This document shows positions 3,266 to 60,324 of a DNA stretch of 64,000 nucleotides, piece after piece. Under the pieces are notes generated by a model. That model saw only the letters and a list, made by a program, of their open reading frames with translations, was not told where the DNA came from and made no database searches. Origin of the DNA: a virus (taxonomy: Duplodnaviria; Caudoviricetes); IMG/VR virus record IMGVR_UViG_3300032893_000041, positions 241-64,240 of that record. One strand, given 5' to 3'. The first letter of the stretch is position 1; each line of letters opens with the position of its first letter. The translations under genes were made by a program, and so were the position numbers.

Positions 3266-4213
3266 TTGATGGTTAACCATCTGACTACGCAATTTCGGCG
3301 CGGCGGCCTCAAGGTGGCGGCTAATGCCGTGCGGAGCGCAGGGCGGTTCGGAGACAGGCACTTGGTGCACGTCAACGATCGAGAGCTGCGCCAGATGACG
3401 GACGCTTGGGGCGCCCCTACCGTCAATCCCGATACCGGTCAACCGGAGTTCTTTGACTTCGGTGGCCTTTTGGGCGACATCGTAGGCGGCATTGGGGACG
3501 TTGTGAATGCGGTCGGGCCTATCGCCGGCCCGATCATGAGTCTGTTTACCGGGGCGCCCGCCGCGCCCGGAACCGGTCAGCAAACTACCTATACGCCACC
3601 TATCGGTCAGGGTGGTCCGCATCTCACTACCATTGCCGCTCCGAGTTCATCGTCATCGCCGCTGTCTGGCCTAGCCAGCGTGCTAGGTGGATTCTTCAAC
3701 CCGAAAAAGAACCCGGTCGGCATGGGAGCGCTCGTTTCGCTCATTGATGCGCTTTACCCACCAAAGACACCATCCGTGGCCCAGCAATTTGCTACAGTGC
3801 AGAACGCGGCAACGAAAGGTGTTCCTGGATGGAATACGCCGCTGCCGACCGCGACCTATAACAACCCGCAAGTCATGCCGACGGGTGATCTCACTCGTTA
3901 TGGGGAGACGGGCGGGCAGGACTTCTATCCCGGCACGGACATGCCGGTCATTCAGAAGGCTCGAGGAGGCATGGGTCGCTTTCTAAACGGACCGGACGGC
4001 GGTCAAGAGGACACAGTGCCGGCCAATCTTTCGGACGGTGAATACGTCATGGACGCCACCACCGTATCCGACCTCGGAGACGGCAATCCCGCTGCCGGGG
4101 CTAAGAAGCTGGATCAGATGCGCGACCGCATCGCCCGCCATAAGGGCCGCCGGAAGCGCGTTCCTAACAAGTCTCATGCGAACGCGCTGGCATACCTTCC
4201 GGGAGCTAAATAA
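3266..4213 (+). CDS. Putative internal virion protein with two GG-preceded small domains
   Basis: FRRGG...GDRHLVHVNDRE...NPDTGQPEFF and KARGG...EDTVPANLSDGEYV motifs; GAGGG RBS. Confidence 0.6.
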   Translation: MMVNHLTTQFRRGGLKVAANAVRSAGRFGDRHLVHVNDRELRQMTDAWGAPTVNPDTGQPEFFDFGGLLGDIVGGIGDVVNAVGPIAGPIMSLFTGAPAAPGTGQQTTYTPPIGQGGPHLTTIAAPSSSSSPLSGLASVLGGFFNPKKNPVGMGALVSLIDALYPPKTPSVAQQFATVQNAATKGVPGWNTPLPTATYNNPQVMPTGDLTRYGETGGQDFYPGTDMPVIQKARGGMGRFLNGPDGGQEDTVPANLSDGEYVMDATTVSDLGDGNPAAGAKKLDQMRDRIARHKGRRKRVPNKSHANALAYLPGAK

Positions 4214-7189: not shown

Positions 7190-7199
7190 GAGGCGCCTG

Positions 7200-8843: not shown

Positions 8844-8847
8844 CATC

Positions 8848-9216
8848 ATGGGCGCCATATCCAAGATCATTCAAGAATTGAGGGCCGCCGCTCAGTTCGG
8901 TGACCATGAGATGCGGCAGACGGCCTGGGAGAAGCTGTTGGATGAGCATGCGGTCCAACCGGGTCATATTCGTCCCATTAGTGCTGGAGACCTGGGAGCC
9001 GATCCGTCCTTGCAACACGACTTGGACCGCTACGTCAATCATTTCAACATCTATCACGACCCCAATGCTGAAAAGTACCTGACCGGGGGTGACTGGCGCG
9101 ACACCCACGAGGACGACGCCTGGGAGCACCTAGAAAATATGGAGCAGGACATCCTGGACCAGATAGCCCCAGTGGACGAGAGAGCCGGGGCCATCGCTAA
9201 ATTAAGAGCGCAGTAA
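8848..9216 (+). CDS. Small putative cargo protein (starts MGAISKII)
   Basis: ATG 4 nt after the upstream stop; TAATG coupling to the next gene. Confidence 0.55.
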   Translation: MGAISKIIQELRAAAQFGDHEMRQTAWEKLLDEHAVQPGHIRPISAGDLGADPSLQHDLDRYVNHFNIYHDPNAEKYLTGGDWRDTHEDDAWEHLENMEQDILDQIAPVDERAGAIAKLRAQ

Positions 9217-12200
9217 TGGGTATCAAGGACTTTCTCTTCTCGGTCGCGGAGGAACTGGCGAAGTCGGCCAAGCAGCCAATGCCGCTCAAGGATTGGCAGG
9301 CTTATCTTCGGCCGGGGCGGGTCCTCACCCGGGGTGGCATCCAGTTCCCGCTGCGCAAGGACGAGGTCCAGCACGGGGCGCTAGGGAAGCTGGGTCCGCA
9401 GATGGGGTCGGCCGATGTACTGTCGCCGGACGAAATGGGAACCCTCCTCCACAACGTGCGGAAGTACTCGACCGACATGCCGGAGTTCCAGACCCATCAG
9501 GCCGGGACCACGTCGCGCGGCATGGCATATAATGACCGTATGCACTACAAGGACCAGTACCAATTGCCCGGCCCGAAGCTGGGGCAGTCGGAGGAGCTGA
9601 CGACGTTGCCGAGTTCAGATTTCGTCGCCTCCACCGCGCACTTCGGCGGCAAGCCGGGCCTGCTGTCGTGGTCGCGCACGACGCGGCGGCCGGTGATAAG
9701 TCCCGAGAATGACGTGGTAAACCCAGGCGACGGGGGCGAGACCGCCCAGCACATCGAGGAAATCCAGTCGGACTGGCACCAGCGGGGGCGGGACGAAGGA
9801 TACGCATTGGGGCCGGATGCTGCAGAAGAATATGATCGACTGAGAAATAAACTTAATACTAGCATGAACAGCAATCCCATATATACAGCTTACACGAAGA
9901 CGACGAGATGGGGCGATAAGTCATTTGACTGGTGGATCGATCACGACGGGTCGGGTTTTTCAATTTTAGATAACCCGAAACGTTTTGGTATGACGCCGGA
10001 AGATGTAAGAGACTATACTAGAATGAAGAAATTATATTGGGGCTTGAGGGGCAATAAACCTCCTCCCGCTCCCTACAAGGACACCTACGCCGAGTTGGAA
10101 CTCAAGAAGAACATCGCCAAGGCGATCGACCAGGGCGACTCTTACGTCACCTGGACAACCGGCGACCAGCAGGCGGACCGTTGGGGACAGGCGCTGCGCA
10201 ACACGGTCGACGAATTGCATTGGAAAAAGACGCCGGACGGCAAGTATACGATCATCCCCATGAAAGGCGGCAACGAACTCGGAGCGGACGGGCGCTTCGA
10301 GAACCTGTCGCCGGCCGACCTCGGGGACACCGTCGGCCGCGACATCGCAAAGCGGATAGTGGAGGGGGAGGGGCGCCACCAGCCGCTCAGTGACCAGGAG
10401 AAGGCCCGCCTGGATCAGTATATTCAGGACCGGGATGAAGCTGTCAATCGGTCATCTGAAATTTCGAACCAGATCAGTGATCTGAATCAGGAAAACCGCC
10501 AATTATACGAAACTGAAACAGACGGCGGACGGCAGCGAGTCGATAATCTTACTCGCATGGCGGCCCTGGCGCGAGAGCGTGACCGGCATCAGCACTTGAT
10601 ACGAGAGACTTCTCATAATTGGGACTACAACGATCTGGCCCGCCGTTATGCAGCATTTAACACCATGGGGCCGGACGCAGGCGTCATCACCAGCGACAAC
10701 CTCACCATTGGCGGCCGGGGGATGCGGAAGTTCTATGACCGCGACGTGCCGGCCGCCGCCAAGAAACTGGCCGATCAGTACGGCGGCGAGGTCACCAAGA
10801 TAAAGATACCGGGAGAGAGCGCCGGGTCCGATATTCCACCAAATGTTCATGCCCCCATGGTCACGTTGTTGGCGGAAGGACACCCCAACAGCGGATCTTT
10901 AGATGAAGACGATGTGCACGACAATATTCATCAGATTCTAACATCTGTTGCCGGGGGCGAAGACGAGGGAGCGCCACAATACATAGATGACGCCGCTTAT
11001 CGGGTCATCAAGGCCATCAACGAGCCGCATAGCAACCCCGACATCGAAGATTATGATAATTGGTATTCAGCCCTGAACGGTCTAAAAGGGGCCTTGCAGG
11101 AACATTATCGAATGCAGGCCAAGCCGCAGGAGGTCCACGCGCTGCGCCTAACGCCCAAGATGGTGGAGAACGTGAAGAAGATCGGCCTGCCGCTTTTTAG
11201 TGCTGGCACCGCCGCCGCCATGGGCCTGCCGAAGGACTATTCGCCTGATGGGTCGCCCGCGCAAGGGTTCGCGGAAGGTGGTCTGGTGAAGGGACTATTT
11301 AAAGCAGCTCTCAGACACATAGATACCGGAGAAATTTACACGGGTGCTAATCATTTAGACGCTCTTGCCGATTATGTAAGTAAGAACCACCCGAATTTGT
11401 TAAATGCGTCTGACGCTAGAAACTTAAGCATGGACCTTCCTACCAGCAAGGATGATTTTTTGAATTCCATACTACCTAAGTTGGAAGACGGATTTGTAAA
11501 CAGTAACGGCGATTTTGTAACGCGCCATCAAGCCTTATCCGACATTCGTAATTCACAGCCTATGAACGTGGTGGATGAAGAACTCGGCCTTCATTCTTCG
11601 GATTTAGACAACGAAGGCACTTCAATATATGATCCCCATGTCTTACCTCCTGACATTGAGGGATACATTAAGGAAATATCGCAATTACGTCCGGGAGTAA
11701 CCGACGACGGCAAGTCCGCCCTTGATTATTACTTAGATCACGTACGGCATTACGTGACAAACGTGTATAACGGCGATAAGAAAAAAGTGCGTAACGCAAT
11801 AAATACGCTGACGGAGGCGTGGAATGATCCTCATGCTACAAATGAGCCGTACGGCAATTGGTTAAACGCGAATCAGAAGTTTAGTAATTCCTTGACGGCG
11901 CGCACGCCCTCATCGAATACGAAGTTTGCTTCCGGTGGTCTAATCTCGCGGCCTCAGCCGAAGAAGCCACTGCCGGACACGGAACTGGATGCGCTTACCG
12001 CCAATGCGCAAGACCCGTTTTGGTGGGTGCAGGGTTACCGGGCGCCGGTCGATCCCAACGTATTCTCCTACTGGGAAGACCCGCCGCGCGGCGATACCGC
12101 CGCCGACCCTATATCCGGGACGATCAATGATGTCGGCTCTGCGCTAAATGCGTTCATCGGGTCCGGGATGCAGGACCTTACCCCAGAGTCCGGACCGTTG

Positions 12201-13202
12201 GACATTGCCGCCGCCCTAGGCAATGACCTCGCCACGGTAATGACCGGCGGCGGCAAGCTATCTGAGGCCGTAGCCAAGCCAGCTTTGGAATTGCTTTCCA
12301 AGGTTTCACCGGCATTCAAGCGCATGTCACCACTGGCGATGCTCGGTATCCATTCGAAGGCCAACCAACCAGCCGAACCCGAATCTAACCCTATCTCGGA
12401 TGAACTATGGGACCTACAAGCGGCTAAGAACGCGTATTACGACCCGTATGCGCCGCGCGGATGGAACGTTCCAGAACAGCCGGGTTTGGACATACCGGGC
12501 ATGGCCAGGGGTGGGTCCATCTTCGACCGGCTGTCCGGGCCGCATCGGGCGATGCATGAGGCGCTCTACCGGCTGCCGGGTATCGACGACCTCCCGGAGA
12601 CGCCGCTGCCGGCTGCGTCCGGGGCCACGGGAGTGGCCTCTGGCACCTGGACCCCCACCACTATAGCCGCGACCCAGCCGACGCTTCTCCAGAGCGCTCC
12701 CGTGGGCCAGGACGGGGTGTCTCTGACCGACATCCTCGGGTCGCCGCCGGTCCTGCGCCCAGGCCATCTTCCGGTACCCCCACACCCCGATATAAGTATG
12801 GAGAACGACATGAGAACGTGGAAGACTACCGCCCCACCCGCCATCGAGCCGCTGATTCAGGCCGCCGCGACCCAGCATGGCGTGCCGCTGGCGGGCCTGC
12901 GGGCGCTGCTCGAGCAAGAGAGCGCTTTCGACCCCCACGCGGTGTCGCCGGTCGGCGCCAGGGGGATAGCGCAATTCATGCCGGCCACGGCCAGGGACTT
13001 CGGCATCGACCCCTTCAATCCGACGCAGGCCATTCCGGCCGCCGCCAAGTACCTGCGGGCGCTCTACGACAAGTTCGGGTCATGGGACAAGGCCCTGGCC
13101 GCCTACAACTGGGGCCAGGGAAACGTCGCCCGTCACGGCATCAACGCCTTGCCCAAGGAGACGGCCGATTACGTCGCCAATCTCGGCCCGCAGTTTAGCT
13201 AG
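9216..13202 (+). CDS. Large multi-module (polyvalent-type) internal virion protein with C-terminal lytic transglycosylase (SLT) domain
   Basis: SLT motifs QESAFDPHAVSPVGARGIAQFMPATA and ALAAYNWGQGNV; EEIQSDWHQ motif; internal FAEGG/FASGG/MARGG junctions. Confidence 0.8.
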   Translation: MGIKDFLFSVAEELAKSAKQPMPLKDWQAYLRPGRVLTRGGIQFPLRKDEVQHGALGKLGPQMGSADVLSPDEMGTLLHNVRKYSTDMPEFQTHQAGTTSRGMAYNDRMHYKDQYQLPGPKLGQSEELTTLPSSDFVASTAHFGGKPGLLSWSRTTRRPVISPENDVVNPGDGGETAQHIEEIQSDWHQRGRDEGYALGPDAAEEYDRLRNKLNTSMNSNPIYTAYTKTTRWGDKSFDWWIDHDGSGFSILDNPKRFGMTPEDVRDYTRMKKLYWGLRGNKPPPAPYKDTYAELELKKNIAKAIDQGDSYVTWTTGDQQADRWGQALRNTVDELHWKKTPDGKYTIIPMKGGNELGADGRFENLSPADLGDTVGRDIAKRIVEGEGRHQPLSDQEKARLDQYIQDRDEAVNRSSEISNQISDLNQENRQLYETETDGGRQRVDNLTRMAALARERDRHQHLIRETSHNWDYNDLARRYAAFNTMGPDAGVITSDNLTIGGRGMRKFYDRDVPAAAKKLADQYGGEVTKIKIPGESAGSDIPPNVHAPMVTLLAEGHPNSGSLDEDDVHDNIHQILTSVAGGEDEGAPQYIDDAAYRVIKAINEPHSNPDIEDYDNWYSALNGLKGALQEHYRMQAKPQEVHALRLTPKMVENVKKIGLPLFSAGTAAAMGLPKDYSPDGSPAQGFAEGGLVKGLFKAALRHIDTGEIYTGANHLDALADYVSKNHPNLLNASDARNLSMDLPTSKDDFLNSILPKLEDGFVNSNGDFVTRHQALSDIRNSQPMNVVDEELGLHSSDLDNEGTSIYDPHVLPPDIEGYIKEISQLRPGVTDDGKSALDYYLDHVRHYVTNVYNGDKKKVRNAINTLTEAWNDPHATNEPYGNWLNANQKFSNSLTARTPSSNTKFASGGLISRPQPKKPLPDTELDALTANAQDPFWWVQGYRAPVDPNVFSYWEDPPRGDTAADPISGTINDVGSALNAFIGSGMQDLTPESGPLDIAAALGNDLATVMTGGGKLSEAVAKPALELLSKVSPAFKRMSPLAMLGIHSKANQPAEPESNPISDELWDLQAAKNAYYDPYAPRGWNVPEQPGLDIPGMARGGSIFDRLSGPHRAMHEALYRLPGIDDLPETPLPAASGATGVASGTWTPTTIAATQPTLLQSAPVGQDGVSLTDILGSPPVLRPGHLPVPPHPDISMENDMRTWKTTAPPAIEPLIQAAATQHGVPLAGLRALLEQESAFDPHAVSPVGARGIAQFMPATARDFGIDPFNPTQAIPAAAKYLRALYDKFGSWDKALAAYNWGQGNVARHGINALPKETADYVANLGPQFS

Positions 13203-19104: not shown

Positions 19105-20216
19105 TCCGGTACGGCGCGGTTGGCGAAATAGCGGATGACTGTGTCTTCGTCCTCCGTCACGTCCTCCTGGTGCGGGCCGAACGAATAGACGTGCTGGCAG
19201 TGCCGGCCTAGGACTTCCTTTTCTATGTTCTCCATCTGGGCCAACCGGTGCCAGAACTCGTTTGGTCCGCGAAGGTAGTCGACGAAGGTCAACGCTACGA
19301 TGTCTGGTCGGTTGAGCGATAACGCGGCGGCGTACTGATCATTGGACCACGTGGCTATACGCCGGATGCGCTTTGAAACGGTGGTGCGCTCGGGTTCGAT
19401 GCCGGGAAAGGCATCTTCCCATCGAAGTTCCTGGCTATCCGGATAGAAAGGACCAGAGTCCCCGATCTGCTCTCCCATTTCATTGAACGAGTGCCCGACG
19501 CGAATGGGAAAGGTACGGACGACCATGGCCACGTTACCGAGAAAGGAGGGGTGTATTCCGGCATCGTTGAAGCCAGAACCGACCCAACAGTCGCGAGAAG
19601 TCGTGTACGGGTAGATATGACCATGGATCAACCCCAGTCCGGTTCCCTGTGGAATTTCGACGGTAACGGCAGCGCGATTTTCAAGATATTCGTTTAGATT
19701 GAGGTCATCGATGTAGGGCGCAATCTTTGGCTCGCCAGCAGCGACGCGCGCCCGGCGCAGCACCTTGCCGGCCAATGTCTGGCCGACGCCCTTTTGGATG
19801 GCGCCATACTTGATGCCGGGCGACTGCTCGATGTCCTTCGCTGCCGCCTTGGCTTCCTCGGTGATGATCGAGGCGCGCGGATGGATGACGAGGCGTTGTA
19901 TGATGCCGCCGTGCGTTCTTTCGCATTCAGCAATCTCTCGCTTTAACGTGGCCACGTCGATGATGGACCCGCCGTTGATGTACACCTTGGACTCACGGCG
20001 GATGACGCCCACGGTCGGCAGATGGTAACAGATGAACTTGGTGCCGTTCTTGTACTGGGTCGTGTGACCCGCCTGCGCCCCGGCGTTCGTTGTGGCGATA
20101 TCGACGCCCTCGGAGCAGGCGTTATGCGCCAGCCACGCCGCAATCTGCCCCTTGCCTTCGGACCCAAATTGTCCACCGACCAGGACCGCCGCACTGCCTT
20201 TTTCTGCCCACTTCAT
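19092..20216 (-). CDS. purZ: PurZ/PurZ0-like adenylosuccinate synthetase paralogue (2-aminoadenine pathway)
   Basis: PurA-fold motifs with Ser replacing the catalytic Asp (GGQFGSEGKG vs GDEGKG); AGHT, YPYTTSRD, RTFPIRVG, ERTTVSKRIRR, LTFVDY. Confidence 0.85.
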   Translation of the reverse strand: MKWAEKGSAAVLVGGQFGSEGKGQIAAWLAHNACSEGVDIATTNAGAQAGHTTQYKNGTKFICYHLPTVGVIRRESKVYINGGSIIDVATLKREIAECERTHGGIIQRLVIHPRASIITEEAKAAAKDIEQSPGIKYGAIQKGVGQTLAGKVLRRARVAAGEPKIAPYIDDLNLNEYLENRAAVTVEIPQGTGLGLIHGHIYPYTTSRDCWVGSGFNDAGIHPSFLGNVAMVVRTFPIRVGHSFNEMGEQIGDSGPFYPDSQELRWEDAFPGIEPERTTVSKRIRRIATWSNDQYAAALSLNRPDIVALTFVDYLRGPNEFWHRLAQMENIEKEVLGRHCQHVYSFGPHQEDVTEDEDTVIRYFANRAVPEWAK

Positions 20217-34223: not shown

Positions 34224-34832
34224 TCATCCGGTCTGACCGGGATCGAAAGGTTCGGACTCGCAAATGCCCGAATGTTCTTGCGGCGGGTCCAACTTATCAA
34301 GTTCGGCGGCGATGACCGGCGGCGTATGAGCGCCGTCGATGTCGCGCGTGTCTACTGGGCCGCTTCCCATCTTGGAAAACACGGCCGGCGACGCGCCCTT
34401 GGACGCAAACTGATAGCGCCCGGCGTAGGGCTGCACGGTAGGTTCGTCCAGGATGTGGAAGACCACCTGGGCAATGGGCGCTCCAGCCGGGATAAAGACG
34501 CGGCGCGACGAGTGGTTGGAAATCTCGAGCGTCAGCGCCTTGCCGACCCAGCCGGGTTCAATGACGGTGTTTTGCACGCAGATGCCCATGCGCGCCCAGG
34601 TGGACTTATCGTGGACGACGCCTAGCAAATCCCACGGCATGTTGAAGCTTTCAATCGTCGAGGCCAGCTTAAAGTGCCCCGGCGACATCTCCAGTTCCTC
34701 GGCGACACGCACGTCGTAACCGGCCGGTGAAAGACCAAAAGTCAAGCCATGGGCATGGGTCCGTTCATGGAACGGCTCGATCATGTAGTTGTTGGCGCAG
34801 TATCGGCGAATTGTTTGCGCGGATGCGATCAT
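34224..34832 (-). CDS. dcd: dCTP deaminase (dUTPase-like fold)
   Basis: GLSPAGYDVR, DKSTWARMG, VIEPGW, LTLEISN, IAQVVF, YAGRYQ. Confidence 0.85.
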   Translation of the reverse strand: MIASAQTIRRYCANNYMIEPFHERTHAHGLTFGLSPAGYDVRVAEELEMSPGHFKLASTIESFNMPWDLLGVVHDKSTWARMGICVQNTVIEPGWVGKALTLEISNHSSRRVFIPAGAPIAQVVFHILDEPTVQPYAGRYQFASKGASPAVFSKMGSGPVDTRDIDGAHTPPVIAAELDKLDPPQEHSGICESEPFDPGQTG

Positions 34833-35079
34833 GATACCACGGTCTCCCTTGAACGATTGATTCGCCCGGTCCCTTGCGGTTCCATGGCAACAAAAACATC
34901 TGGCCGTCCGAGTACGCCACCATGCCGTCGAAGTTGCGGGTGGTGCGATGTTCGAAGGAGTCCAGCGGCACGGCCACGAACCCGCCGTCCGCCGCATCGT
35001 TGCCGTGCAACATGCAAGCTCGATGGCGGTACTCGATGACCCAGTTGTTGAGGATGCGAAGCCGCACGATGGAACCTAT

Positions 35080-39690: not shown

Positions 39691-40278
39691 ATGGTCGATA
39701 AATACCCTAACGAGACTCCCCGGATTGACTGGGCCGCCATCGAGGCGGACTATAAGGCCGGCATCCTGAATGATGGAATGATCTGCGCGAAGTGGGGAAT
39801 CTCACTGTCGAATCTTCGCCGAGTGGCGAATAAGCACCAGTGGAAGCGACAGGAGATCGCGCACGTGAATCCACCACCGTTCGGCGGCGGCACTCCGGCC
39901 GGGAACACGCTGTCTGATACCGAAGTCGCTGGAATGCAGGCCCGCCAGTTGATGGCAATCGTTCATGAACATCGGCGCGACATTCAGAAGATTCGGGGTC
40001 TGGCGAGCCTTCTGTTTGAGCGCACGATGCTGATTCTCGACGGTCAGGAAGTCTCTCGTGCGTGCTTTGGCGGCCGAGAATCGCCGGCTGACATGATGAT
40101 GAAATTAGCTAAGACGATGTTTGAGGCGATCAAGATGGAGCGCGAGGTCCTCGGCATGTCGTCCATGACGCAGTTGTCGGACCCGGAGGCAGTGGACGGC
40201 GGCGAGGAGTGGCATCAGGTCGTCAAGAAGTTGGATGAACTCTACAAAGAGAAGGTTGGTAAGTCCCACGATGACTGA
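39691..40278 (+). CDS. terS: Terminase small subunit
   Basis: N-terminal HTH IDWAAIEADYKAG...ICAKWGIS; immediately upstream of terL. Confidence 0.75.
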   Translation: MVDKYPNETPRIDWAAIEADYKAGILNDGMICAKWGISLSNLRRVANKHQWKRQEIAHVNPPPFGGGTPAGNTLSDTEVAGMQARQLMAIVHEHRRDIQKIRGLASLLFERTMLILDGQEVSRACFGGRESPADMMMKLAKTMFEAIKMEREVLGMSSMTQLSDPEAVDGGEEWHQVVKKLDELYKEKVGKSHDD

Positions 40279-41821
40279 TGCTCTCGTTGATCTTCGGCCG
40301 CGACGGATAACGCTCAATCCGCTTGCCGCTATCGCGGATATGCGCATGCTTTGGTTGCACGAGGCGCGGCCAAAGCAACTAGCTCCTCCCGGCGACTGGC
40401 TGACGTGGCTTAACCGTTGCGGTCGCGGCTATGGCAAGACGCGATTGGGCGCGGAAGAGATTTTATGGCGGGCCGGTACTAGGCCTAATACGCGGTGGGC
40501 CGTTCTGGCGCCGACGTACAATGACTGCCGCTTTACTTGCTTTGAGGGCGAGTCCGGCATTCTGGCACGGCTGCCGCCGGTCTGCATCACTAAGAATGGA
40601 TGGAACAAGTCGTACCTCGAGCTTAAGTTGTGGAACGGGTCGGAGATTCGTGGATTCGCGGCCACGGAACCGGGCCGCATTCGAGGTCCGCAGTTTCATG
40701 GCGGCTGGTTCGATGAGCTGGCGGCTGCTGCGCGCGAGTCGTTGGAGGAGGCATGGTCCAACTTGCAATTTGCGTGCCGCTTGCGTTACGAGGACTTCGC
40801 CCCTCAGATCATCATCACGACGACGCCGAAGCCGATTCCGATCATCAAGAAGATTCGACTGGCGCCCGGCACGATCACTACGAGCGGCTCGACCTACGAG
40901 AATAAGGAAAACTTAGCGCCGTCATTCTTCGACCGCATCGTTCAGTATGAAGGCACCCGGATCGGGCGCCAAGAGATTCATGGCGAGGAGATCGACCCGG
41001 AGGAAGCCGGCATCGTCAAGCGGTCATGGTTTAAGCTGTGGCCGATGAAGAACGGCTTACCTCGATTTCAGTTGGTCATCATGTCGCTGGACACGGCGTT
41101 TAAGGAAAAGCAATATGATAAGAACAATGACCCCGATTATTCTGCTTGTACTACTTGGGGCGTGTTTAATATACAGACCGGCGTGGAGAGGTTGCCGGGT
41201 GGCGTTGAGAAGAAGAAATATCGTGCCAACGTTATGCTACTTGATGCTTGGCGTGATCATCTCGGGCTACCTGATCTGGTTGATAAAGTACGCGCTCAAT
41301 CTCGGCTGACGTTCGGCGCCATTGAGACGCCACTAATCAAGAGCGCTCTTTATGGGGTCGTGCCGTCGCGCATCTCGGGCAAGGGGCGCAAGGTCGATCT
41401 GATCGTAATTGAGGACAAGGCTAGCGGCATCAGCCTGATTCAGACGTTGGCCAAGCACAAGGTATTCGTGCACCCTTACAATCCGGACGGCGCGGATAAG
41501 GTGATGCGTCTTCATATCGTGTCGCACATTCCGAATTCGGGCATCGTGTGGATACCGGAGAGCCGCTCGACCATCGACATGGAACCGAGTGATAAGAAGT
41601 TCTCTGCGTGGTCGGATGAGTTCTTGGACGAGGTCTGCACGCAGCCGAACGCCGACTACTGGGATTACACCGATACATTCACGCAGGCGCTACGAGTTCT
41701 CGTTGATAAAGGAATTCTGTCCGTGACCGTGCCGAAAGCGTACGAGAAGGACCCGGACGCATCACCGCCGCCGGGGCGGCGCGGCGGGCGTCGTCGTCGC
41801 CATAATCCGTATGGCAGCTAA
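40271..41821 (+). CDS. terL: Terminase large subunit
   Basis: RPKQ, GRGYGKT, RGPQFHGGWFDE, TTTP; nuclease SLDTA, DYSA, IEDKASG, DYTDT. Confidence 0.95.
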   Translation: MTDALVDLRPRRITLNPLAAIADMRMLWLHEARPKQLAPPGDWLTWLNRCGRGYGKTRLGAEEILWRAGTRPNTRWAVLAPTYNDCRFTCFEGESGILARLPPVCITKNGWNKSYLELKLWNGSEIRGFAATEPGRIRGPQFHGGWFDELAAAARESLEEAWSNLQFACRLRYEDFAPQIIITTTPKPIPIIKKIRLAPGTITTSGSTYENKENLAPSFFDRIVQYEGTRIGRQEIHGEEIDPEEAGIVKRSWFKLWPMKNGLPRFQLVIMSLDTAFKEKQYDKNNDPDYSACTTWGVFNIQTGVERLPGGVEKKKYRANVMLLDAWRDHLGLPDLVDKVRAQSRLTFGAIETPLIKSALYGVVPSRISGKGRKVDLIVIEDKASGISLIQTLAKHKVFVHPYNPDGADKVMRLHIVSHIPNSGIVWIPESRSTIDMEPSDKKFSAWSDEFLDEVCTQPNADYWDYTDTFTQALRVLVDKGILSVTVPKAYEKDPDASPPPGRRGGRRRRHNPYGS

Positions 41822-41827: not shown

Positions 41828-41857
41828 TTGACACGGGAGCGCCGGCTGGCGTAGGAT
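41828..41857 (+). promoter_or_regulatory. Sigma70-like promoter
   Basis: TTGACA-18 nt-TAGGAT. Confidence 0.6.
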
Positions 41858-42001: not shown

Positions 42002-42856
42002 ATGGGAGCGCTGTCTCAAATTCTATCAGAGTTGACTAACGTTGCTCGCCAGGGCGTGCGTAATGTTGCCCGCGAGGGTAAGCGCCAGGGTCATGAATGG
42101 GCGACCGCCGGCCCAAACGTCGAGACGAGAGACCCTATCTTGATGTCAATTCCGGAGCGGTTGATGTCTACGTCCGGCGAGCGCAATCGGGTAAACGATA
42201 TCTATAAGTTGCATGAATACTCGCTAGGACCGAACGCCAGCATCGATCCGCATCGGGCGTCGCTGGGCGACCCCTATTTCACGGTGCATAATCACCCGAC
42301 CGGATTTCCGTCGCCTTCGTCGGCAGACCTAAACTTTCATAATTGGATGCCGACGCCGGATAAGCACGAGATGATAGTGGCTGGCGTGCCGCATTGGAGA
42401 GACCCAGTGATGGGTGATTACCAGTGGCGGGGTGAAGACCCGCATTGGATAGGGCTGGGGCCGTTATCCGGCATTTCGCGTTACTCGACGCCGGGCGGCG
42501 TGATCGACCGCGACTCGCAGCGGGATTATGCGTCGAGGGTTTACCAGCACATGGCGCGAGGGTTGACCGACCTCGTAACTAACCCGGACACGACCGTTCG
42601 GTACGTGCCGAAAGGCAGCGGCTCGCTGCATGACGACATCAAGGCCGCCATCGATGCGCCGGACATCGAGCCGTGGGATTCCTATAGACAGTATTTTGGA
42701 AGCTTCCCGTTGCGCAACATGGCCGAGCGCTCGCCTAATGACGTGCGCTACCAATTGCAGATGCATCACCCGCTGGATCAGCACATCTATGATTCGATCT
42801 TCGACGTGATGAAGCGACACGGTGCGCTCGACAAGGCAGAAGGCGGACTGGTCTGA
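42002..42856 (+). CDS. JAB/MPN+ (JAMM, RadC-like) domain protein with C-terminal AEGGLV
   Basis: HNHPTGFPSPSSAD fits HxHx7Sx2D; upstream Glu candidate in GHEWA. Confidence 0.7.
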   Translation: MGALSQILSELTNVARQGVRNVAREGKRQGHEWATAGPNVETRDPILMSIPERLMSTSGERNRVNDIYKLHEYSLGPNASIDPHRASLGDPYFTVHNHPTGFPSPSSADLNFHNWMPTPDKHEMIVAGVPHWRDPVMGDYQWRGEDPHWIGLGPLSGISRYSTPGGVIDRDSQRDYASRVYQHMARGLTDLVTNPDTTVRYVPKGSGSLHDDIKAAIDAPDIEPWDSYRQYFGSFPLRNMAERSPNDVRYQLQMHHPLDQHIYDSIFDVMKRHGALDKAEGGLV

Positions 42857-43947
42857 TGGGAGCGCTCGACAAGATCATCCGCGCAAATCTCGCGCACCTG
42901 GAGGAACTTCTAGGCCATTCGACCGTGCCGGTGGGTCCCGCCGCCCACGAGGAGGCACGACGCGCGGTGTCGATGGGAGTAGCGCCATCATGGGCACAGG
43001 CGCAGGCAAAGGGCCTCCCGCTTGATCCCGTGAGCATTGAGAACCGTGCCAACGCGCTAGGCTTTACCAATCGAGCGTTTCATGGCACGCATCGTTTTCC
43101 GTTCGACGAGATGGATGAAGGTGACCGCCAATTTTCGGAAGACCCAACCGACTATGACTTTCATTCATTGGAGGGCCGCCGGATCGTGCCGGAAGACCCG
43201 GACACGACCGTGTCTCGTTATCTTGGTGCACACATTTCACGCGGTCCGAAGATAGCGCAATACTTTACGGGGTATAAGCGTAGTCCTTATACAGCCGTTC
43301 TAAACCCGATGACCCAAGAATATGAGCCTATAGGTGGAGTTGCTTACCAACATATTGCCATGCCCGGTGGTCGCATCATTCCACTTCGGTTCCGTGGCTC
43401 GCAATATGAGCTGCCGCAGAAGTGGTTGTTTAGTGATTCTGTAAACCGTCGTATGCTACCTGATGAGCGACCTGATTTAAATAAACCGATCTTTGATGAC
43501 CTTGCCGTGGATATCGATGCGGCGACGCACGCACTCCTGGCCGATCCAGAGTTTGCGCGCTCTACGGCGCATGGCGAGGGTACGCCGTCCTTCGACAAAT
43601 TGAGACAACTGAGTGATCGCGGTAATGAATACGACATGCGGCGGTTTGTTCAGGCGCGACACAATGACCTCAATCCGTTGATGATGTCGCCGGGTGAGGA
43701 AGACCCTGATTACCTTGATCCCAATACGCTGCAATCAATCATGGATATTTATCGCGGTAACCTCTTAGGGCGCGGTCATTCCGTGATTCGTTATCACAAC
43801 ACCATGGAAAACGAAACGATGGGTGCTCCATCCGCTGATTCTTACATCGTGTTAGACCCCAGTCGGGTGCGCGGTCCGTCGGCGATCTACGACCCGGACC
43901 TCAGCCACCTAGGCGGGCTGAGTTATTTTGAAGGTGGAGAAGTTTGA
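42856..43947 (+). CDS. Putative ADP-ribosyltransferase (ART-PolyVal-like) with C-terminal FEGGEV
   Basis: AFHGT...LGAHIS..P..AQYF...GGRIIPL...SYIVLDPSRVRGPSAIYDP pattern. Confidence 0.6.
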   Translation: MGALDKIIRANLAHLEELLGHSTVPVGPAAHEEARRAVSMGVAPSWAQAQAKGLPLDPVSIENRANALGFTNRAFHGTHRFPFDEMDEGDRQFSEDPTDYDFHSLEGRRIVPEDPDTTVSRYLGAHISRGPKIAQYFTGYKRSPYTAVLNPMTQEYEPIGGVAYQHIAMPGGRIIPLRFRGSQYELPQKWLFSDSVNRRMLPDERPDLNKPIFDDLAVDIDAATHALLADPEFARSTAHGEGTPSFDKLRQLSDRGNEYDMRRFVQARHNDLNPLMMSPGEEDPDYLDPNTLQSIMDIYRGNLLGRGHSVIRYHNTMENETMGAPSADSYIVLDPSRVRGPSAIYDPDLSHLGGLSYFEGGEV

Positions 43948-46688
43948 TGCCGCCGCTTGATCCAGACGACCAGGACCCCAACATGCCGCAGTCGCCGGAC
44001 GGCGAATATGCCGAGATTCCGGACGATGAAGGTGACCCCGACGTGCAGGAAAATGAGGACGGGTCCGCCATCGTTCAATTGAGCGATAAGACGGAGGTCG
44101 ACGAACACGAGGAGTTCTTTGCCAATCTGGCGGAGAAGCTGCCGCGCCACTATCTGTCGGCGATGGCGACCGAACTGCTCGATCTCATCGAGAAGGACCA
44201 GGAGTCGCGCAAGTCTCGTGACAAGTTATACGCGGAGGGCCTCAAGCGTGCCGGCCTTACCGATGATAAGGGTGAAGACAGCAGCACCGGATTTGAGGGC
44301 GGTAGCACCGTCACGCACCCGGTTATCATCGAGTCGTGCATTGATTTTGCGGCGCGCGTCGTCAAGGAGCTGTTGCCGCCGGAAGGTCCGGTAAAGGACA
44401 AGGTCATCGGTACTGCGACCAACGCGAAGGTGGAGAAGGCCCGTCGCAAGGTCAAGCATATGAACTGGCAGCTAACCCAGCAGATCAAAGAATTCCGCCC
44501 GATGATGGAGCAGGGCTGCACACAGATTCCGCCGGGCGGCGCTTTCTATATGAAGATGTGGTGGAGCAAGACGCTGGGTCGCGTCACTTGCAAGGCGGTC
44601 TATGTCGACGACGTTTACTTGCCTTATTCGGCCTCTTCGTTCGAGACGGCGCTGCGCCGGACGCACGTTATTTACACGACTGACCAGGAGTTCGAGCAGG
44701 ATGTGGAATCCGGCATGTATGCGACGCCGGATTATCTGACGGGCGCGGGACAGGAACCGGAGAAGTCGGAGACCAGCAAGACCAGCGATGAGGTCGAGGG
44801 TAAGGAATCGACCGGCTATAATGAGGACGGGCTGCGCGTGCAATACGAGACGCAGCTTTGGAAGGTGATCGATGGCGACGATTACGCACAGGGAGAGCTT
44901 GCTCCGTACATTGTTACTATCGACCTCGTGTCGCGTTCCATCGTCGGGATTTATCGCAACTGGGACCCCGAAAAGACCGACCTGTTCGAGGAACTCCCGA
45001 TCATGGTCGAGTTTCCTTTCATTCCATGGCGGGGCGCCTTTCCTCTCACCATCTTCCATCTCATCGGTTCCTTGTCCGTTGCGGCAACGGGCGCTCTACG
45101 ATGCCTACTCGATTCCGGATTTGTAAATACGGTTCCGTCGCTGGCCAAGTTGAAAGGCGGGCTGGGCGACGACGGCGGCCAGTCGAAGGACTTCCAGCCG
45201 GGTGAAGTGACGGAGATTAACGGCGGCCTTGCTACCGACGACGTGTCGAAGCAGGCGTTCCAGATGAACTTCAATCCGCCGGCCCCGGTCTTGTTCGAGC
45301 TGCTGGGCTTCCTGGTGGACGCGGCCAAGGGCGTGGTGCAGACGACCTTCGACGAGCTGGCGGATTCGAATGCCAACGTGCCGGTGGGTACGACGCTGGC
45401 CCGCTATGAGCAGGGCACCGTCGTGTTTTCGTCCATCCACGCACGGTTGCACGCGGCCCTGGCGCAAGTGTTCGCCATTTTGCACCGGCTCAACAAGTTC
45501 TACCTCAAGGACAGCGTCACCAAGGACGAGGCCGGCGAAATCCTGGCGTACCGCAGCGATTATGAAGGCCCGGTGGACGTGGTTCCCGTGTCCGATCCGC
45601 GCATCTTCTCCGATACGCAGCGGTTCGTGCAGATTTCGGCGGTGGTGCAGCGCGCGACCAACAATCCGCTGTACAAGCAGCGCGAAGTAGAAAAGCTATG
45701 GCTCAAGCAGACGCACGTTCCGGAGGCAGAAAAGCTTCTGGTGGATGAGCCGACGCCGCGCCGCATGAACGCGGTTAACGAGAACCTCGCCCTATTGATG
45801 AAGCGACCGGTATCGGCCTTCCCCGAGCAGGATCACGAGGCACATCTCAACACACATCTTCCCTTCATGATGTCGCCGGTCATCGGGGCGCTGCCCATCG
45901 TCGTGCCGGCGCTCTATCCGGAGATGTTGCAGCACGTCATCGAACACGTCGGCTTTTGGTACGTCAGTAAATACCACGATGAGATGAGCCGAGCGGCGGG
46001 TGTCGAGATCACGGAGCTGATGGATGAAGACCCGCAGATCATGGCGGAATTTGACCGGTTCGTGGCGAAGGTGACACCGACCATCATGAAGGAGATGGAT
46101 AAGACGTTTGCCAAGTTGCCGCCCATCATAACGCAGGCACTGCAATTGTTGCAAAAGATGTCGCCGCAACAGCCGCAAGACCCGACCGCTCAAGCGCTGG
46201 CGGCGGAAACCGCGCGAAAGGGCCAGAAGGATCAGATGGACGCCAAGGCGGCGGACCAGAAGGTGCAGTTGAGCGCGGCGGAGTTGAAGTTGCAGGCGGC
46301 CAAGCAACAGCAGGACGCCGAACAGGCGGCGGCTGACCGGCAGGCACAGCAACAGAGAGACGCGCAGGCCGCCCAGTTGCAGCAGCAGAAGGACCAGCAA
46401 CAGGCCGACCTGCAAGCACAACAGCAGGCCCAGGCCGCCGCCGATGCCGAGAAGCAACGACAGCTCGATGCGGCCAAGCTGGCGCAGGACGGTGAGAAGC
46501 ACCTGCGCGACGCGGCACAGGCCGCCGCCGACATGCAGGCCGAGAACGACCGCAAGGCCGCCGACTTGCGGGTCAAGACTGACGTGAACACGGCGGATAA
46601 CGAAACGGCCTTAACAATTGCGAAGATGGAGGTAGAGGCCGGCAGGAAGAGCAATATAAAGACTGGAACTGGAATCAACCCGCAATAG
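43947..46688 (+). CDS. Portal protein (P22-like, long Gln/Ala coiled-coil tail)
   Basis: 913 aa downstream of terL; FEGGSTVTHP, PVGTTLA, PVSDP, AFPEQDHEAH. Confidence 0.85.
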   Translation: MPPLDPDDQDPNMPQSPDGEYAEIPDDEGDPDVQENEDGSAIVQLSDKTEVDEHEEFFANLAEKLPRHYLSAMATELLDLIEKDQESRKSRDKLYAEGLKRAGLTDDKGEDSSTGFEGGSTVTHPVIIESCIDFAARVVKELLPPEGPVKDKVIGTATNAKVEKARRKVKHMNWQLTQQIKEFRPMMEQGCTQIPPGGAFYMKMWWSKTLGRVTCKAVYVDDVYLPYSASSFETALRRTHVIYTTDQEFEQDVESGMYATPDYLTGAGQEPEKSETSKTSDEVEGKESTGYNEDGLRVQYETQLWKVIDGDDYAQGELAPYIVTIDLVSRSIVGIYRNWDPEKTDLFEELPIMVEFPFIPWRGAFPLTIFHLIGSLSVAATGALRCLLDSGFVNTVPSLAKLKGGLGDDGGQSKDFQPGEVTEINGGLATDDVSKQAFQMNFNPPAPVLFELLGFLVDAAKGVVQTTFDELADSNANVPVGTTLARYEQGTVVFSSIHARLHAALAQVFAILHRLNKFYLKDSVTKDEAGEILAYRSDYEGPVDVVPVSDPRIFSDTQRFVQISAVVQRATNNPLYKQREVEKLWLKQTHVPEAEKLLVDEPTPRRMNAVNENLALLMKRPVSAFPEQDHEAHLNTHLPFMMSPVIGALPIVVPALYPEMLQHVIEHVGFWYVSKYHDEMSRAAGVEITELMDEDPQIMAEFDRFVAKVTPTIMKEMDKTFAKLPPIITQALQLLQKMSPQQPQDPTAQALAAETARKGQKDQMDAKAADQKVQLSAAELKLQAAKQQQDAEQAAADRQAQQQRDAQAAQLQQQKDQQQADLQAQQQAQAAADAEKQRQLDAAKLAQDGEKHLRDAAQAAADMQAENDRKAADLRVKTDVNTADNETALTIAKMEVEAGRKSNIKTGTGINPQ

Positions 46689-46901: not shown

Positions 46902-47096
46902 GTGATCGAGCGGATAATTCAATTGCTCACCGAAGAGAGGTCACGGTTTTCCGTGGAGATGCTCAGCAAAGGTTTCAACGGCGACTCGTCCTATTTGGCC
47001 GGTAAGGCCGTGGGGCACGTGGCCGGCTTGAGCCGGGCGCTCGACGTGATAGCCCAGTTACTCTCTGCGGAGGAGAAAAGGGAGAAAAAACTCTGA
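46902..47096 (+). CDS. Small head-region protein
   Basis: 64 aa; GGAGG RBS; Y...VG...GL motif; lies between portal and GroES. Confidence 0.6.
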   Translation: MIERIIQLLTEERSRFSVEMLSKGFNGDSSYLAGKAVGHVAGLSRALDVIAQLLSAEEKREKKL

Positions 47097-47542
47097 TGTC
47101 GCAAGTCAGTCATTTGAACGTCTCCATGGGATATGATTCCTTGGAGGAGGCATTCCCGGACGTGGAATGCGGGCACGTCGCCCTAGGTACCACCGTCATC
47201 GTTCAGTTGCGCGTCCCAAAGTCGAAGACCAAGGGCGGCGTGATATTGGCATCGGACACGCGCGATACCGAACAGTGGAACACGCAGGTTGCCAAGGTCG
47301 TCGAGGTCGGGCCGGTTGCGTTTCGCAACCGTCAGACCATGCAGTCGTGGCCGGAGGGTGCGTGGGCGAAGAAGGGCGACTACGTGCGTGTGCCGAAGTA
47401 TGCGGGTGATAAGTGGCAAGTCGAATTCGTTCCGAAGGGGCGCATGCGCACTCAGGACGATGTCGCGATCTTCTGCATCTTTAACGATCTGGAATTAAAG
47501 GCCAAGATTCCGGACCCGTTGACCGTCAAGTCGTTCGTCTAG
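47096..47542 (+). CDS. groES: Co-chaperonin GroES-like protein
   Basis: KTKGGVIL, AKVVEVGP, KKGDYVRVPKYAG, IFND. Confidence 0.85.
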   Translation: MSQVSHLNVSMGYDSLEEAFPDVECGHVALGTTVIVQLRVPKSKTKGGVILASDTRDTEQWNTQVAKVVEVGPVAFRNRQTMQSWPEGAWAKKGDYVRVPKYAGDKWQVEFVPKGRMRTQDDVAIFCIFNDLELKAKIPDPLTVKSFV

Positions 47543-58553: not shown

Positions 58554-59300
58554 ATGGTAGGCAGGCATAACGACAATCTGAAAGAAAGTGTAGAACGGTT
58601 GCATCGGGGCCGCACTTATGAAGACTTGACCACGATCATCGTTGTTCCGACGCGCGGCGAGATACCAGCCAAGGTAGTCGGGTCGTGGATGGGACTTATG
58701 CGCCCGATGAACCAAGTGTGCGCTGGTCCGGACTTTTGGGCGGGATATGAGGTCGGCGACGCGTACAATCGCGCGGTAGAAGCCATCCTTGCCACGAATG
58801 CTAACATTCGAAAACAGCAACCGGCGGGCCGCCCATTCCGATACATGCTGACATTAGAGGATGACAACATTCCGCCTCCAGACGGCATCTTGAAGCTTAT
58901 GGAAAGCATCAAGGACTACGATGCCGTCGGCGGTCTGTACTGGACCAAGGGTGAGGGTGGGCAGCCCATGATCTATGGTAACCCAAATGTGACGCCGCGT
59001 AACTTTGTGCCACAGATGCCGGTGGCAGAAGCCATCCAGAAATGCAACGGTCTCGGCATGGGCTTCACGCTTTTCCGCATCGAGCTGTTGGAAAAGATGG
59101 CGCCGGACATGCCAAAAGGGTCGGACGGCGTGCGCCAGTGGTTCCGCACTGTGCAGGAATGGTCGGCGGAAAAGGGAGGCAAGGCGTTTACTCAGGACTT
59201 GTGGTTCTTCGATCAGGCGGCCAAGTACGGAGCGAGAGTCGCCAGCGACAATCGAGTACACGTGGGGCACTACGACAAGATCAACGATATCGTCTGGTAG
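58554..59300 (+). CDS. GT-A fold (GT2-like) glycosyltransferase
   Basis: IIVVPTR, YNRAV, YMLTLEDD (DxD-like), GMGFTLF, TQDLWF, VGH. Confidence 0.75.
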   Translation: MVGRHNDNLKESVERLHRGRTYEDLTTIIVVPTRGEIPAKVVGSWMGLMRPMNQVCAGPDFWAGYEVGDAYNRAVEAILATNANIRKQQPAGRPFRYMLTLEDDNIPPPDGILKLMESIKDYDAVGGLYWTKGEGGQPMIYGNPNVTPRNFVPQMPVAEAIQKCNGLGMGFTLFRIELLEKMAPDMPKGSDGVRQWFRTVQEWSAEKGGKAFTQDLWFFDQAAKYGARVASDNRVHVGHYDKINDIVW

Positions 59301-59313
59301 AAAGGTTGAGGAA

Positions 59314-60324
59314 ATGAAAGCACTTATCACTGGCGGGGCGGGTTTCATAGGCCACCATGTGGTGGACTATCTGCTCAAGAATACCGGCTGGGAGCTGACG
59401 ATCTTGGATCGGCTCGATGGCAGCGGCAATCAGATGCGATTGATGGAGCTGGATGACTGGTACTATTCTTGGTCCAAAGGAAGAGTAAAATTTTGCTTCC
59501 ATGACCTCCGGGCGCCGTTTTCCGATCAGGTGTCGGCGCAGATTGGAGAACACGAGATCGTGCTGCATCTGGCGGCGGCGACGCACGTTGATCACTCTAT
59601 CCGCGACCCGTTGTCATTCGTGATGGACAACGTCGTATCTACTTGCAACCTACTTGATCACGTGCGCAAGGTCGGATGCGACAAGATGATTTACTTCTCG
59701 ACTGATGAGGTCTTTGGTCCGGCGATATACGGCACGGCGCATGCCGAATGGGATCGCTATCGGTCCGGCAACCCGTATGCCGCCACCAAGGCCGGCGCGG
59801 AAGAGCTGTGCGTCGCCTACCAGAACACTTACCGCGTGCCGGTCATCATCACACACTGTATGAACGTGTTCGGAGAGCGCCAGCACCCGGACAAATTCAT
59901 CCCCGGAACGATAGCTCGAGTGTCGCGCGGTGAGAAGGTCCTCATTCATTCCAATGCTGCGCGGACCAAAGCTGGATCGCGCTTCTATATTCATGCGCAG
60001 TCGGTAGCGGAGGCCCTGTTGTTTCTTCTCGAGCAGGGTTTCGTGCCGGGCGACAAGTACAATATCGTAGGAGAACGCGAAGTCGACAACCTCGAGCTGG
60101 CAACGATGATTGCCAATTACGTCGGCAAAAAACTGATCTACGAGATGGTGGACTTTCATTCTTCTCGGCCGGGCCACGATTTGCGTTACGCGCTCGATGG
60201 TCGAAAGATGGCAGCGATGGGGTGGGGGCCTACGGCGGGGCTAGAGGAGCGTCTACAGTCGGTGGTGACATGGACGCTGAACAATCCGCATTGGCAACTA
60301 GGGTTGAGGAGTGCTGCAGAATGA
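59314..60324 (+). CDS. rmlB: dTDP-glucose 4,6-dehydratase-like NAD-dependent SDR
   Basis: TGGAGFIG, LAAATHVDHSI, STDEVFG, YAATK, QHPDKFIP, RPGHDLRYALD. Confidence 0.88.
   Translation: MKALITGGAGFIGHHVVDYLLKNTGWELTILDRLDGSGNQMRLMELDDWYYSWSKGRVKFCFHDLRAPFSDQVSAQIGEHEIVLHLAAATHVDHSIRDPLSFVMDNVVSTCNLLDHVRKVGCDKMIYFSTDEVFGPAIYGTAHAEWDRYRSGNPYAATKAGAEELCVAYQNTYRVPVIITHCMNVFGERQHPDKFIPGTIARVSRGEKVLIHSNAARTKAGSRFYIHAQSVAEALLFLLEQGFVPGDKYNIVGEREVDNLELATMIANYVGKKLIYEMVDFHSSRPGHDLRYALDGRKMAAMGWGPTAGLEERLQSVVTWTLNNPHWQLGLRSAAE

Follow-up and report, generated by a model that had tools for sequence, protein, structure and literature searches.

What does a metalloprotease-like gene do among the DNA-packaging genes of a tailed phage? 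The question is raised by an open reading frame (ORF) at positions 42002-42856, on the plus strand, of a 64,000-nucleotide (nt) stretch of the virus record IMGVR_UViG_3300032893_000041 (Duplodnaviria; Caudoviricetes). This stretch, called the window below, is nearly all of a complete record of 64,240 bp that has direct terminal repeats and an estimated completeness of 100%. The ORF encodes 284 amino acids (aa), with MGALSQIL at its start and ...HGALDKAEGGLV at its end (tail AEGGLV), and it is located inside the packaging and virion gene block, between the large terminase (TerL) and portal genes and on the same strand as both. Its segment HNHPTGFPSPSSAD is an exact fit to H-x-H-x7-S-x2-D, and the gene and its product are called the JAMM gene and the JAMM protein here. 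A preliminary description of the window had pointed to this motif, the MGAL start, the AEGGLV end and the position between terminase and portal, all of which were confirmed in the ORF, and had proposed either a protease acting on Gly-Gly (GG) tags or an injected counter-defence deconjugase. The explanation that we tentatively favour is a divergent JAB/MPN+-type accessory enzyme, which is encoded in a two-gene cassette and would be loaded into the virion via the motifs at its two ends and injected.

A conserved metal-site motif in a small and divergent protein family

By itself, the motif was not above chance, because a six-frame translation of the window contained a single H-x-H-x7-S-x2-D, and at least one match was present in 39 of 200 shuffled sequences; it is conservation that gives the motif meaning. 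A word-based search of 5.8 billion proteins matched the JAMM protein to nothing besides itself. Three relatives were retrieved by phmmer from 1.84 billion representative proteins, with E-values (E) of 4.3e-6 to 1.5e-5, and a profile search of the same representatives added two more, which gave a family of six including the window protein. The five relatives are 26-34% identical to the window protein, and 13 residues upstream of and within the motif region (E32, T57, S58, Y92, T94, H96, H98, P99, P103, P105, S106, D109 and L110) are invariant in all six members, as are six residues of the C-terminal tail (G274, L276, A279, G281, G282 and V284).

The JAMM motif is defined, in the portion of PMC5925218 available to us, as E-x(n)-H-x-H-x7-S-x2-D. 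In the present family, the spacing of H96, H98, S106 and D109 is exact in six of six members, and E32 stands as a candidate for the catalytic glutamate. The preliminary description had mentioned an upstream Glu without fixing it; it is best placed at E32, the sole invariant Glu before the HxH pair, which in the low-confidence model opens a predicted strand directly after the N-terminal helix. The spacing from E32 to H96 is 64 residues, versus 50 counted in Escherichia coli YicR. One member of 381 aa, P0002, carries AEGGRV internally and continues for ~110 more residues that have no family match; this arrangement may reflect a fusion, read-through or processing.

Weak profile and fold matches point mostly to the JAB, RadC and MPN families

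The window protein matched the Pfam families RadC with E 0.013 and 15.9 bits (cut-off 22.1) and Prok-JAB with E 0.038 and 14.3 bits (cut-off 25). Prok-JAB was matched by all six members at E ≤ 1, the best of them reaching E 7.3e-5 and 23.1 bits versus the cut-off of 25. Among the NCBIfam models, those of RadC were matched by four of the six members (radc at 16.4 bits versus a cut-off of 133.85), Cap3 by one member (E 0.18) and desampylase by another (E 0.17). Five JAB models of PADLOC were weakly matched, each by one or two of the six members and never by the window protein. When the family profile was compared with PDB sequences, RadC 2qlc (E 0.22) and AfJAMM 1oi0/1r5x (E 0.7-0.8) were matched at the motif.

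The structural comparisons pointed in the same direction. In the Foldseek search of the PDB with the domain model, ranks 1-50 listed were all RadC, JAMM or MPN-containing entries as judged by title (chain identities unchecked), with a best E of 0.08 and a template modelling (TM) score of about 0.3; the full-length low-confidence model returned a mixed list, with many MPN entries among the matches listed. Clusters of Prok-JAB, JAB and RadC, with TM 0.31-0.40, are among the structural neighbours of the ESM Atlas model. The order of elements predicted in the low-confidence models, namely a helix, a strand opening at E32, a strand ending in HxH and a helix after S-x-x-D, fits MPN. Across the five libraries (Pfam, NCBIfam, PADLOC, PDB sequences and Foldseek), the weak matches were thus mostly to JAB, RadC or MPN families, with a few unrelated matches. 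Two unrelated candidates were discarded: H-NS, the sole match of a single-sequence PDB search, was attributed to chance, and I-MsoI, the top match of the PDB profile search, which aligned with the C-terminal region in two stretches of 9.4 bits each, was treated likewise.

Several results weigh against the JAB assignment and hence against the enzyme that we favour. No JAB model reached its curated threshold (Pfam Prok-JAB, RadC and JAB; NCBIfam RadC), and the Prok-JAB matches span only about positions 50-103 of the 114-position profile, which is the HxH...SxxD half of the domain. An hhalign comparison of the family with E. coli YicR aligned 23 motif columns at 29% probability, and the catalytic Glu was not reliably positioned when the YicR JAB domain was included in a MAFFT alignment. 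The AlphaFold2 models built from the six-sequence alignment were both unusable, with a predicted local distance difference test (pLDDT) score of 34.7 at full length and of 38.8 for residues 26-160, and neither gave a Foldseek match in the PDB at E ≤ 0.001. Moreover, genomic loci of the five homologues were sought in viral, metagenome and genome contigs, and none was confirmed there. The JAB/MPN+ identity put forward in the preliminary description thus survives in part: the motif residues are invariant and the weak matches point mostly to JAB, RadC and MPN, while no curated cut-off is reached.

The missing thresholds, the non-significant fold matches of low-confidence models, the frequency of the bare motif in shuffled windows and the unusually long spacing between E32 and H96 would all suit a protein that is no working JAB enzyme, that is, one of another fold or an inactive MPN-like scaffold with a structural or binding role, in which the motif is a relic or a coincidence. 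We judge this quite improbable, because five catalytic-type residues and the flanking Pro, Ser and Thr are invariant despite only 26-34% identity, and because the weak matches in five libraries fall mostly on JAB families. Membership of the JAMM protein in the JAB superfamily is therefore considered likely from these profile and motif comparisons, and the protein is predicted to be a very divergent JAB/MPN+-type zinc hydrolase that is probably active. Going by the superfamily, H96, H98 and D109 would be the metal ligands, E32 would be the general base and S106 would support catalysis.

With prokaryotic JAB/RadC-like proteins (PF14464, PF04002; 2qlc, 1oi0/1r5x), the window protein has in common the H-[NS]-H-P-x-G-x2-P-S-x2-D motif, an upstream invariant Glu and the predicted order of elements. 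It differs from them in lying below every curated cut-off with only the C-terminal half of the domain aligned, in its 64-residue Glu-His spacing, and in an extra helical C-terminal half of ~150 aa that ends in the conserved tail. RadC carries an HhH domain, which the window protein lacks. The JAB deconjugases of the Cap3/BilB type, which are associated with ubiquitin-like proteins (Ubl) and the cyclic oligonucleotide-based antiphage signalling system (CBASS), share the superfamily signature, and PDB 9ild and 8tyx were among the listed Foldseek matches; however, the similarity of the window protein to this type is no better than to RadC, and Pfam scans of the remaining ORFs showed no E1, E2, Ubl or CD-NTase partner in the window.

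The JAMM gene is accessory and occupies an insertion hot spot between TerL and portal

The TerL-portal junction was compared across relatives of the window phage. The portal search gave 266 confirmed IMG/VR relatives, of which 80 were kept, and both TerL and portal are present in 78 of the loci fetched. The two genes lie directly next to each other in 64 of the 78, with a gap of ≤ 135 nt between the matches, so that no gene fits into the junction there. In the remaining 14 loci, among which L003 and L004 represent one contig, this place is occupied by unrelated cargo of 0.3-6.9 kb. These data identify the TerL-portal junction of the group as a hot spot for insertions. In ten loci (L053, L055, L058, L068, L070, L075, L076, L078, L080 and L081), the junction cargo measures 0.9-6.9 kb and includes ORFs of 996 aa and 1832 aa.

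The nearest named relatives of the window phage are the Caulobacter phages RW and KcrB. KcrB, whose portal is 47% identical, has a tRNA-Val alone at the TerL-portal site. The closest relative of all, G001 (34.1 kb, 59% complete, portal identity 69-71%), shows the order TerL, a 59-nt gap, a homologue of ORF363 (the downstream neighbour of the JAMM gene) and portal, and no JAMM gene was found at this site or elsewhere in its 34 kb. Furthermore, no member of the JAMM family was detected in 50,697 phage records, by a pattern scan of IMG/VR, in the relative G002 (100% complete) or in G003-G006, and a six-frame translation of 165 of the 168 fetched loci (14,813 frames; 1.15 Mb for all 168) contained no JAMM relative at E ≤ 10. 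The same family profile retrieved the window gene at 1.7e-99 as a positive control. These results demonstrated that the JAMM gene is accessory and not core.

This distribution bears on a role as the core prohead-maturation protease, with the JAMM protein replacing a missing conventional enzyme. Such a role had been suggested by two facts, both of which stand: the gene lies within the head and packaging block, and, in agreement with the preliminary description, Pfam and PHROG scans of the other window ORFs recognised no prohead protease family. The missing recognised protease is nevertheless no argument for the JAMM gene, because the complete relatives KcrB and G002 carry the same head genes without it. 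We regard this role as scarcely tenable, since every relative examined shares the portal, scaffold-like, GroES-like and capsid genes and lacks the JAMM gene, since the positive control works, and since TerL directly abuts portal in most of the related loci.

The N-terminal MGA[LI] start recurs on genes of the ejection-protein module

The JAMM protein begins with a helix, spanning residues 2-29 in the low-confidence model, that carries a GAL-x2-L-x2-L motif, and GAL is present in all six family members. A survey of gene starts found MGA[LI] on five window genes, which begin at 5357, 7200, 8848, 42002 and 42856, and MGIK on a sixth at 9216. Four of these six genes sit in an ejection and internal-protein module that spans 3269-13202 and encodes, besides a PHROG 'DNA ejection protein', a protein of 1328 aa that carries an SLT domain. 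Codon use at the MGA[LI] starts varies from gene to gene, which argues that the constraint acts on the protein. The counterparts in G001 start with MGAM, MGAI, MGAI and MGAL, and no shared MGA-type start was found in G002 or G005. The proteins at the 8848 position of the window and of G001 share their first seven residues, MGAISKI, and otherwise have no detectable homology, a pattern that would be expected of a tag on exchangeable cargo.

Three points stand against reading this start as a separate label. GAL lies at residues 9-11, and not at the N-terminus, in the five JAMM homologues; MGAL is internal in the gp066-like protein of the window; and the GAL helix of the JAMM family may be no more than the first helix (alpha-1) of a JAB fold.

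The C-terminal GG tail is a motif of a core virion protein

The C-terminal tail of the JAMM family (consensus rGhLdYAEGGxV) recurs on other proteins of this phage lineage. In KcrB, gp066, a protein of 580 aa encoded in the tail and ejection block (L087 34436-36178, minus strand), ends with ...IRYMDGGRV, and its C-terminal domain is 46% identical to window positions 3842-4150. A tail survey was made on 80 IMG/VR relatives of the gp066 domain (loci including L089-L167). Thirty-seven of the 80 end with GG-x-[VIL], mostly as ...PEAYLSGGRI/V, and the other 43 have variants such as YLSGGRT/A, SYLRG, YLKGAK and YLKGVA. The conserved core of the gp066-like tail is thus Tyr-[Leu/Met]-x-Gly at the extreme C-terminus, with a second Gly often but not always following. 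As a separate observation, the family shows the domain pattern ...ANLSDGEYV..A..V...GDG...AGAKKLD..., with Y-[LM]-x-G-G-x-[VI] at the extreme C-terminus.

Of the 8611 open frames of ≥ 60 aa in the complete set of fetched loci, 51 have an ending of the form Y..GG.{1,4}. These comprise 46 gp066-like proteins, the gp066 proteins of KcrB and G002 (2), one ORF363 homologue, one protein of G005 and one apparently spurious frame. The G005 protein is an accessory protein of 398 aa without a Pfam family, encoded immediately upstream of TerL in this distant relative (95% complete), and ends with ...GLLNYKRGGSVP (L172 15445-16641, minus strand). The gp066-like homologue of G001 ends instead with ...PAPGIGSLIRKVS, an end that we take to resemble the cargo-loading peptides of encapsulins. 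These results indicated that a core virion protein carries the tail as a specific C-terminal motif throughout the lineage, and that at least three accessory families, unrelated to one another and encoded beside the packaging genes, have gained it as well. Because it is conserved in relatives without any JAMM gene, the tail does not need the JAMM enzyme.

The last result bears on the proposal that the JAMM protein is the protease for the GG tags. According to this proposal, the JAMM domain would remove the two residues that follow Gly-Gly, acting in cis on the tail of its own protein and in trans on that of ORF363 or of the gp066-like protein, in the manner of QbsD and QbsE, and the exposed GG would serve release, activation or conjugation. 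The JAMM domain and the EGGxV tail do occur together in six of six members, with G281, G282 and V284 invariant; the coupled neighbour ORF363 bears the same tail; and the internal AEGGRV of P0002, with ~110 residues after it, is as expected of a cleavage site. The precedent is the removal by QbsD of CF after the GG of QbsE, as described in the accessible portion of PMC5925218, and the QbsD/QbsE and CxnF/CxnE pairs treated there likewise combine a JAMM enzyme with a GG that is followed by a short extension, which here is of two residues (LV, EV, PV, RV or SV). In contrast to these pairs, the tail is here borne by the enzyme and by other proteins that are not Ubl, neither a beta-grasp carrier nor an adenylating enzyme is present, and the tail is also widespread where there is no JAMM gene. 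It is ancestral on the gp066-like proteins of relatives that lack the gene (G002, 100% complete; G005, 95%; KcrB, complete), many gp066-like tails (SYLRG, YLKGAK, YLKGVA) have no GG around their Y-[LM]-x-G core, and G001 retains a GG-tailed ORF363 homologue with no JAMM gene at the site. In addition, Pfam scans of the phage ORFs found no E1, ATP-grasp or Ubl family, and the region before the tail is predicted, in the low-confidence model, to be helical and not beta-grasp. Processing of GG tails is thus improbable, and this half of the preliminary proposal is not upheld.

The coupled neighbour ORF363 carries both end motifs

ORF363 starts with MGAL and ends with ...LSYFEGGEV, and it is connected by TGATG overlaps to the JAMM gene (42854-42858) and to portal (43945-43949). 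The sole homologue found, P0008, is 56% identical and ends with ...LSYEEGGLV. In the ESM Atlas, the top three feature matches of ORF363 were all clusters of ART-PolyVal, an ADP-ribosyltransferase (ART) type, with scores of 0.87-0.89, and five of the ten structure matches listed were also ART-PolyVal clusters, the two best having TM 0.51 and 0.60. ORF363 may thus be a packaged ADP-ribosyltransferase of the ART-PolyVal-like type, which we offer as a lead from these model comparisons; the lead fits the picture of phage 'polyvalent' effectors given in the accessible part of PMC5512222. Against it, ORF363 was matched by no profile HMM, with Pfam giving nothing even at E ≤ 10, PF18760 had no match in the genome, and the PDB search of ORF363 returned weak YfiB matches only. 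The possibility that the JAMM protein and ORF363 are paralogues was rejected, as their BLASTP match (E 0.64) was confined to the first residues.

A possible cassette of virion-loaded enzymes

The explanation that we tentatively favour brings these observations together as follows. The JAMM gene and the translationally coupled ORF363 would form a two-gene cassette in the TerL-portal hot spot, and their strand, position and coupling suggest late expression, along with the packaging and head genes. At the N-terminus the MGA[LI] helix and at the C-terminus the Y-x-[DE]-G-G-x-V tail would act as virion-incorporation labels that dock both proteins into the assembling particle, the tail mimicking the conserved C-terminus of the core gp066-like virion protein. 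The JAB-like enzyme would in this way enter the head, leave it together with the DNA and be active early in the infected cell, where its candidate substrate, of the host or of the phage, may be either an (iso)peptide bond or a nucleic acid or nucleotide, the latter two having been proposed for the RadC clade. A point against this explanation is that it is the shared end motifs alone which suggest that MGA[LI]- or GG-tailed proteins are present in the virion.

The reading of the end motifs as docking labels is drawn from an analogy with phage T4, whose diverse internal proteins share only a capsid-targeting sequence, as stated in the part of PMC3012670 accessible to us. In both cases, a short N-terminal sequence is common to unrelated proteins, including non-homologous proteins of the same locus, here those of the 8848 position. 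The present motifs differ in that they have no sequence similarity to the T4 sequence, occur in another phage type and are accompanied by no prohead protease that would remove the tag, and packaging would here follow by analogy only. A second parallel comes from the polyvalent and MuF-linked effectors: in the accessible text of Iyer et al. 2017 (PMC5512222), the proposal is made that phage effectors whose genes lie among those for packaging are injected along with the DNA. The window pair has in common with these effectors the presence of effector-type domains among the packaging and portal genes, to which the same packaging and injection logic might apply. It differs from polyvalent proteins in consisting of two single-domain genes and not of one polypeptide with several domains, and from MuF-linked effectors in having no MuF or portal fusion, in place of which the short shared end motifs are found.

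The main competing account is that the JAMM protein is a RadC-like JAB enzyme which stays unpackaged in the cytoplasm, a late accessory acting on nucleic acids, nucleotides or a host protein in the producing cell, while its ends serve folding or oligomerisation. Its H-N-H-P-x-G-x2-P-S-x2-D motif is of the RadC/Prok-JAB type, and the hot spot also takes methyltransferase-like and other unrelated cargo. In the same part of PMC5512222, the RadC-clade JAB domains are argued to lack the groove for ubiquitin tails and may act on nucleic acids or nucleotides rather than on Ubl tails. However, this account leaves unexplained the recurrence of both end motifs on unrelated ejection-module proteins and on the neighbour, as well as the occurrence of such genes beside TerL or portal in three lineages (the window, G001 and G005), and we consider it unlikely.

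The second proposal of the preliminary description, an injected counter-defence deconjugase, receives indirect support from the end motifs common to the ejection-module proteins and from the ART-PolyVal-like neighbour. A bolder version of the virion-loading explanation, which we regard as doubtful, can also be formulated. The MGA[LI] helix and the Y-x-[DE]-G-G-x-V tail would be portable virion-loading peptides of this phage lineage, equivalent in function to the T4 capsid-targeting sequence or to the cargo-loading peptides of encapsulins, the tail having been copied from the gp066-like protein by accessory genes beside terminase and portal, and the JAB-like and ART-like proteins would make up a 'split polyvalent protein' whose parts are separately tagged and co-injected. 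The JAB enzyme could remove host conjugates of the Ubl/CBASS type or, on entry, release cargo from the tail that docks it.

JAB domains in phages are already known; the present one belongs to a family of six members and shares both ends with unrelated proteins of virion modules, and the main interest lies in these modular end motifs and not in the protease idea. Should the ends be loading signals, they would amount to a simple two-peptide rule for the choice of accessory enzymes that a phage brings into the cell, would offer a means of packaging foreign proteins, and would show effectors copying a core structural docking tail. A packaged JAB enzyme together with an ADP-ribosyltransferase-like protein, if true, would extend the short list of enzymes delivered with phage DNA. 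Should the ends be folding elements only, what is left is an accessory JAB gene of divergent sequence, located in an insertion hot spot of a known type.

Genomic context of the locus

The features of the locus and of the ejection-protein module are collected in the following table.

Table 1. Positions of the JAMM gene, its sequence elements, its flanking genes and the proteins that share its end motifs, in window coordinates.
Feature	Position	Strand	Basis
gp066-like virion protein; ends AYLPGAK (tail variant), internal GMGAL	3269..4213	+	46% identity to KcrB gp066 C-terminal domain; PHROG tape-measure-like motif
MGAL-start protein of the ejection-protein module, 560 aa	5357..7039	+	start survey; PHROG
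MGAL-start protein of the ejection-protein module, 547 aa	7200..8843	+	start survey; PHROG
MGAISKII-start protein, 122 aa	8848..9216	+	start survey; comparison with G001
MGIK-start internal virion protein, 1328 aa, C-terminal SLT domain	9216..13202	+	Pfam/PHROG
TerL, upstream flank of the insertion site	40235..41821	+	Pfam Terminase_6N, E 4e-14; PHROG
Promoter-like site TTGACA-18-TAGGAT in the TerL-JAMM spacer	41828..41857	+	1 site versus 1.8 expected in shuffles
JAB/MPN+-motif (JAMM) protein, 284 aa	42002..42856	+	open ORF; family of 6; sub-threshold JAB/RadC matches
N-terminal helix with MGAL / GAL-x2-L-x2-L motif (aa 1-29)	42002..42088	+	helix 2-29 in low-confidence model; GAL in 6/6 members
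E32, candidate catalytic glutamate	42095..42097	+	sole invariant Glu upstream of HxH; opens predicted strand directly after helix
H-x-H-x7-S-x2-D metal-site motif HNHPTGFPSPSSAD (H96, H98, S106, D109), aa 96-109	42287..42328	+	invariant in 6/6 members; aligned to 2qlc, 1oi0/1r5x, YicR
C-terminal tail GALDKAEGGLV (family consensus rGhLdYAEGGxV)	42821..42853	+	invariant G274, L276, A279, G281, G282, V284
ORF363, neighbour with MGAL start and ...LSYFEGGEV end, possible ART-PolyVal-like enzyme	42856..43947	+	ORF calling; Atlas neighbours
Portal protein, downstream flank	43947..46688	+	PHROG portal

The window has a GC content of 58% and a podophage-like layout, in which Pfam and PHROG matches give the order small and large terminase, JAMM ORF, ORF363, portal, GroES-like, scaffold-like, major capsid protein and tail genes, the last including an SU10-type adaptor. 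TerL and the JAMM gene are separated by 180 nt. The promoter-like site in this spacer is no evidence of function, because the single site found compares with 1.8 expected in shuffles. The start of portal was placed at the ATG at 43947 because of the TGATG overlap with ORF363. Searches of the window for tRNAs and Rfam families were negative.

Several further genes were observed. A GroES/Cpn10-like gene (47096-47542, plus strand) is located between the portal and scaffold-like genes, and KcrB has one at the same position. The replication module encodes an adenylosuccinate-synthetase-family protein of 374 aa (19092-20216, minus strand; E 6.5e-30), a short PurA homologue that may resemble the PurZ of 2-aminoadenine (Z-base) genomes, and it is accompanied by a dCTP-deaminase/dUTPase-like protein (34224-34997, minus strand). 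Amid the tail genes lies a gene of the GDP-mannose 4,6-dehydratase/epimerase family (59005-60324, plus strand; E 3e-45).

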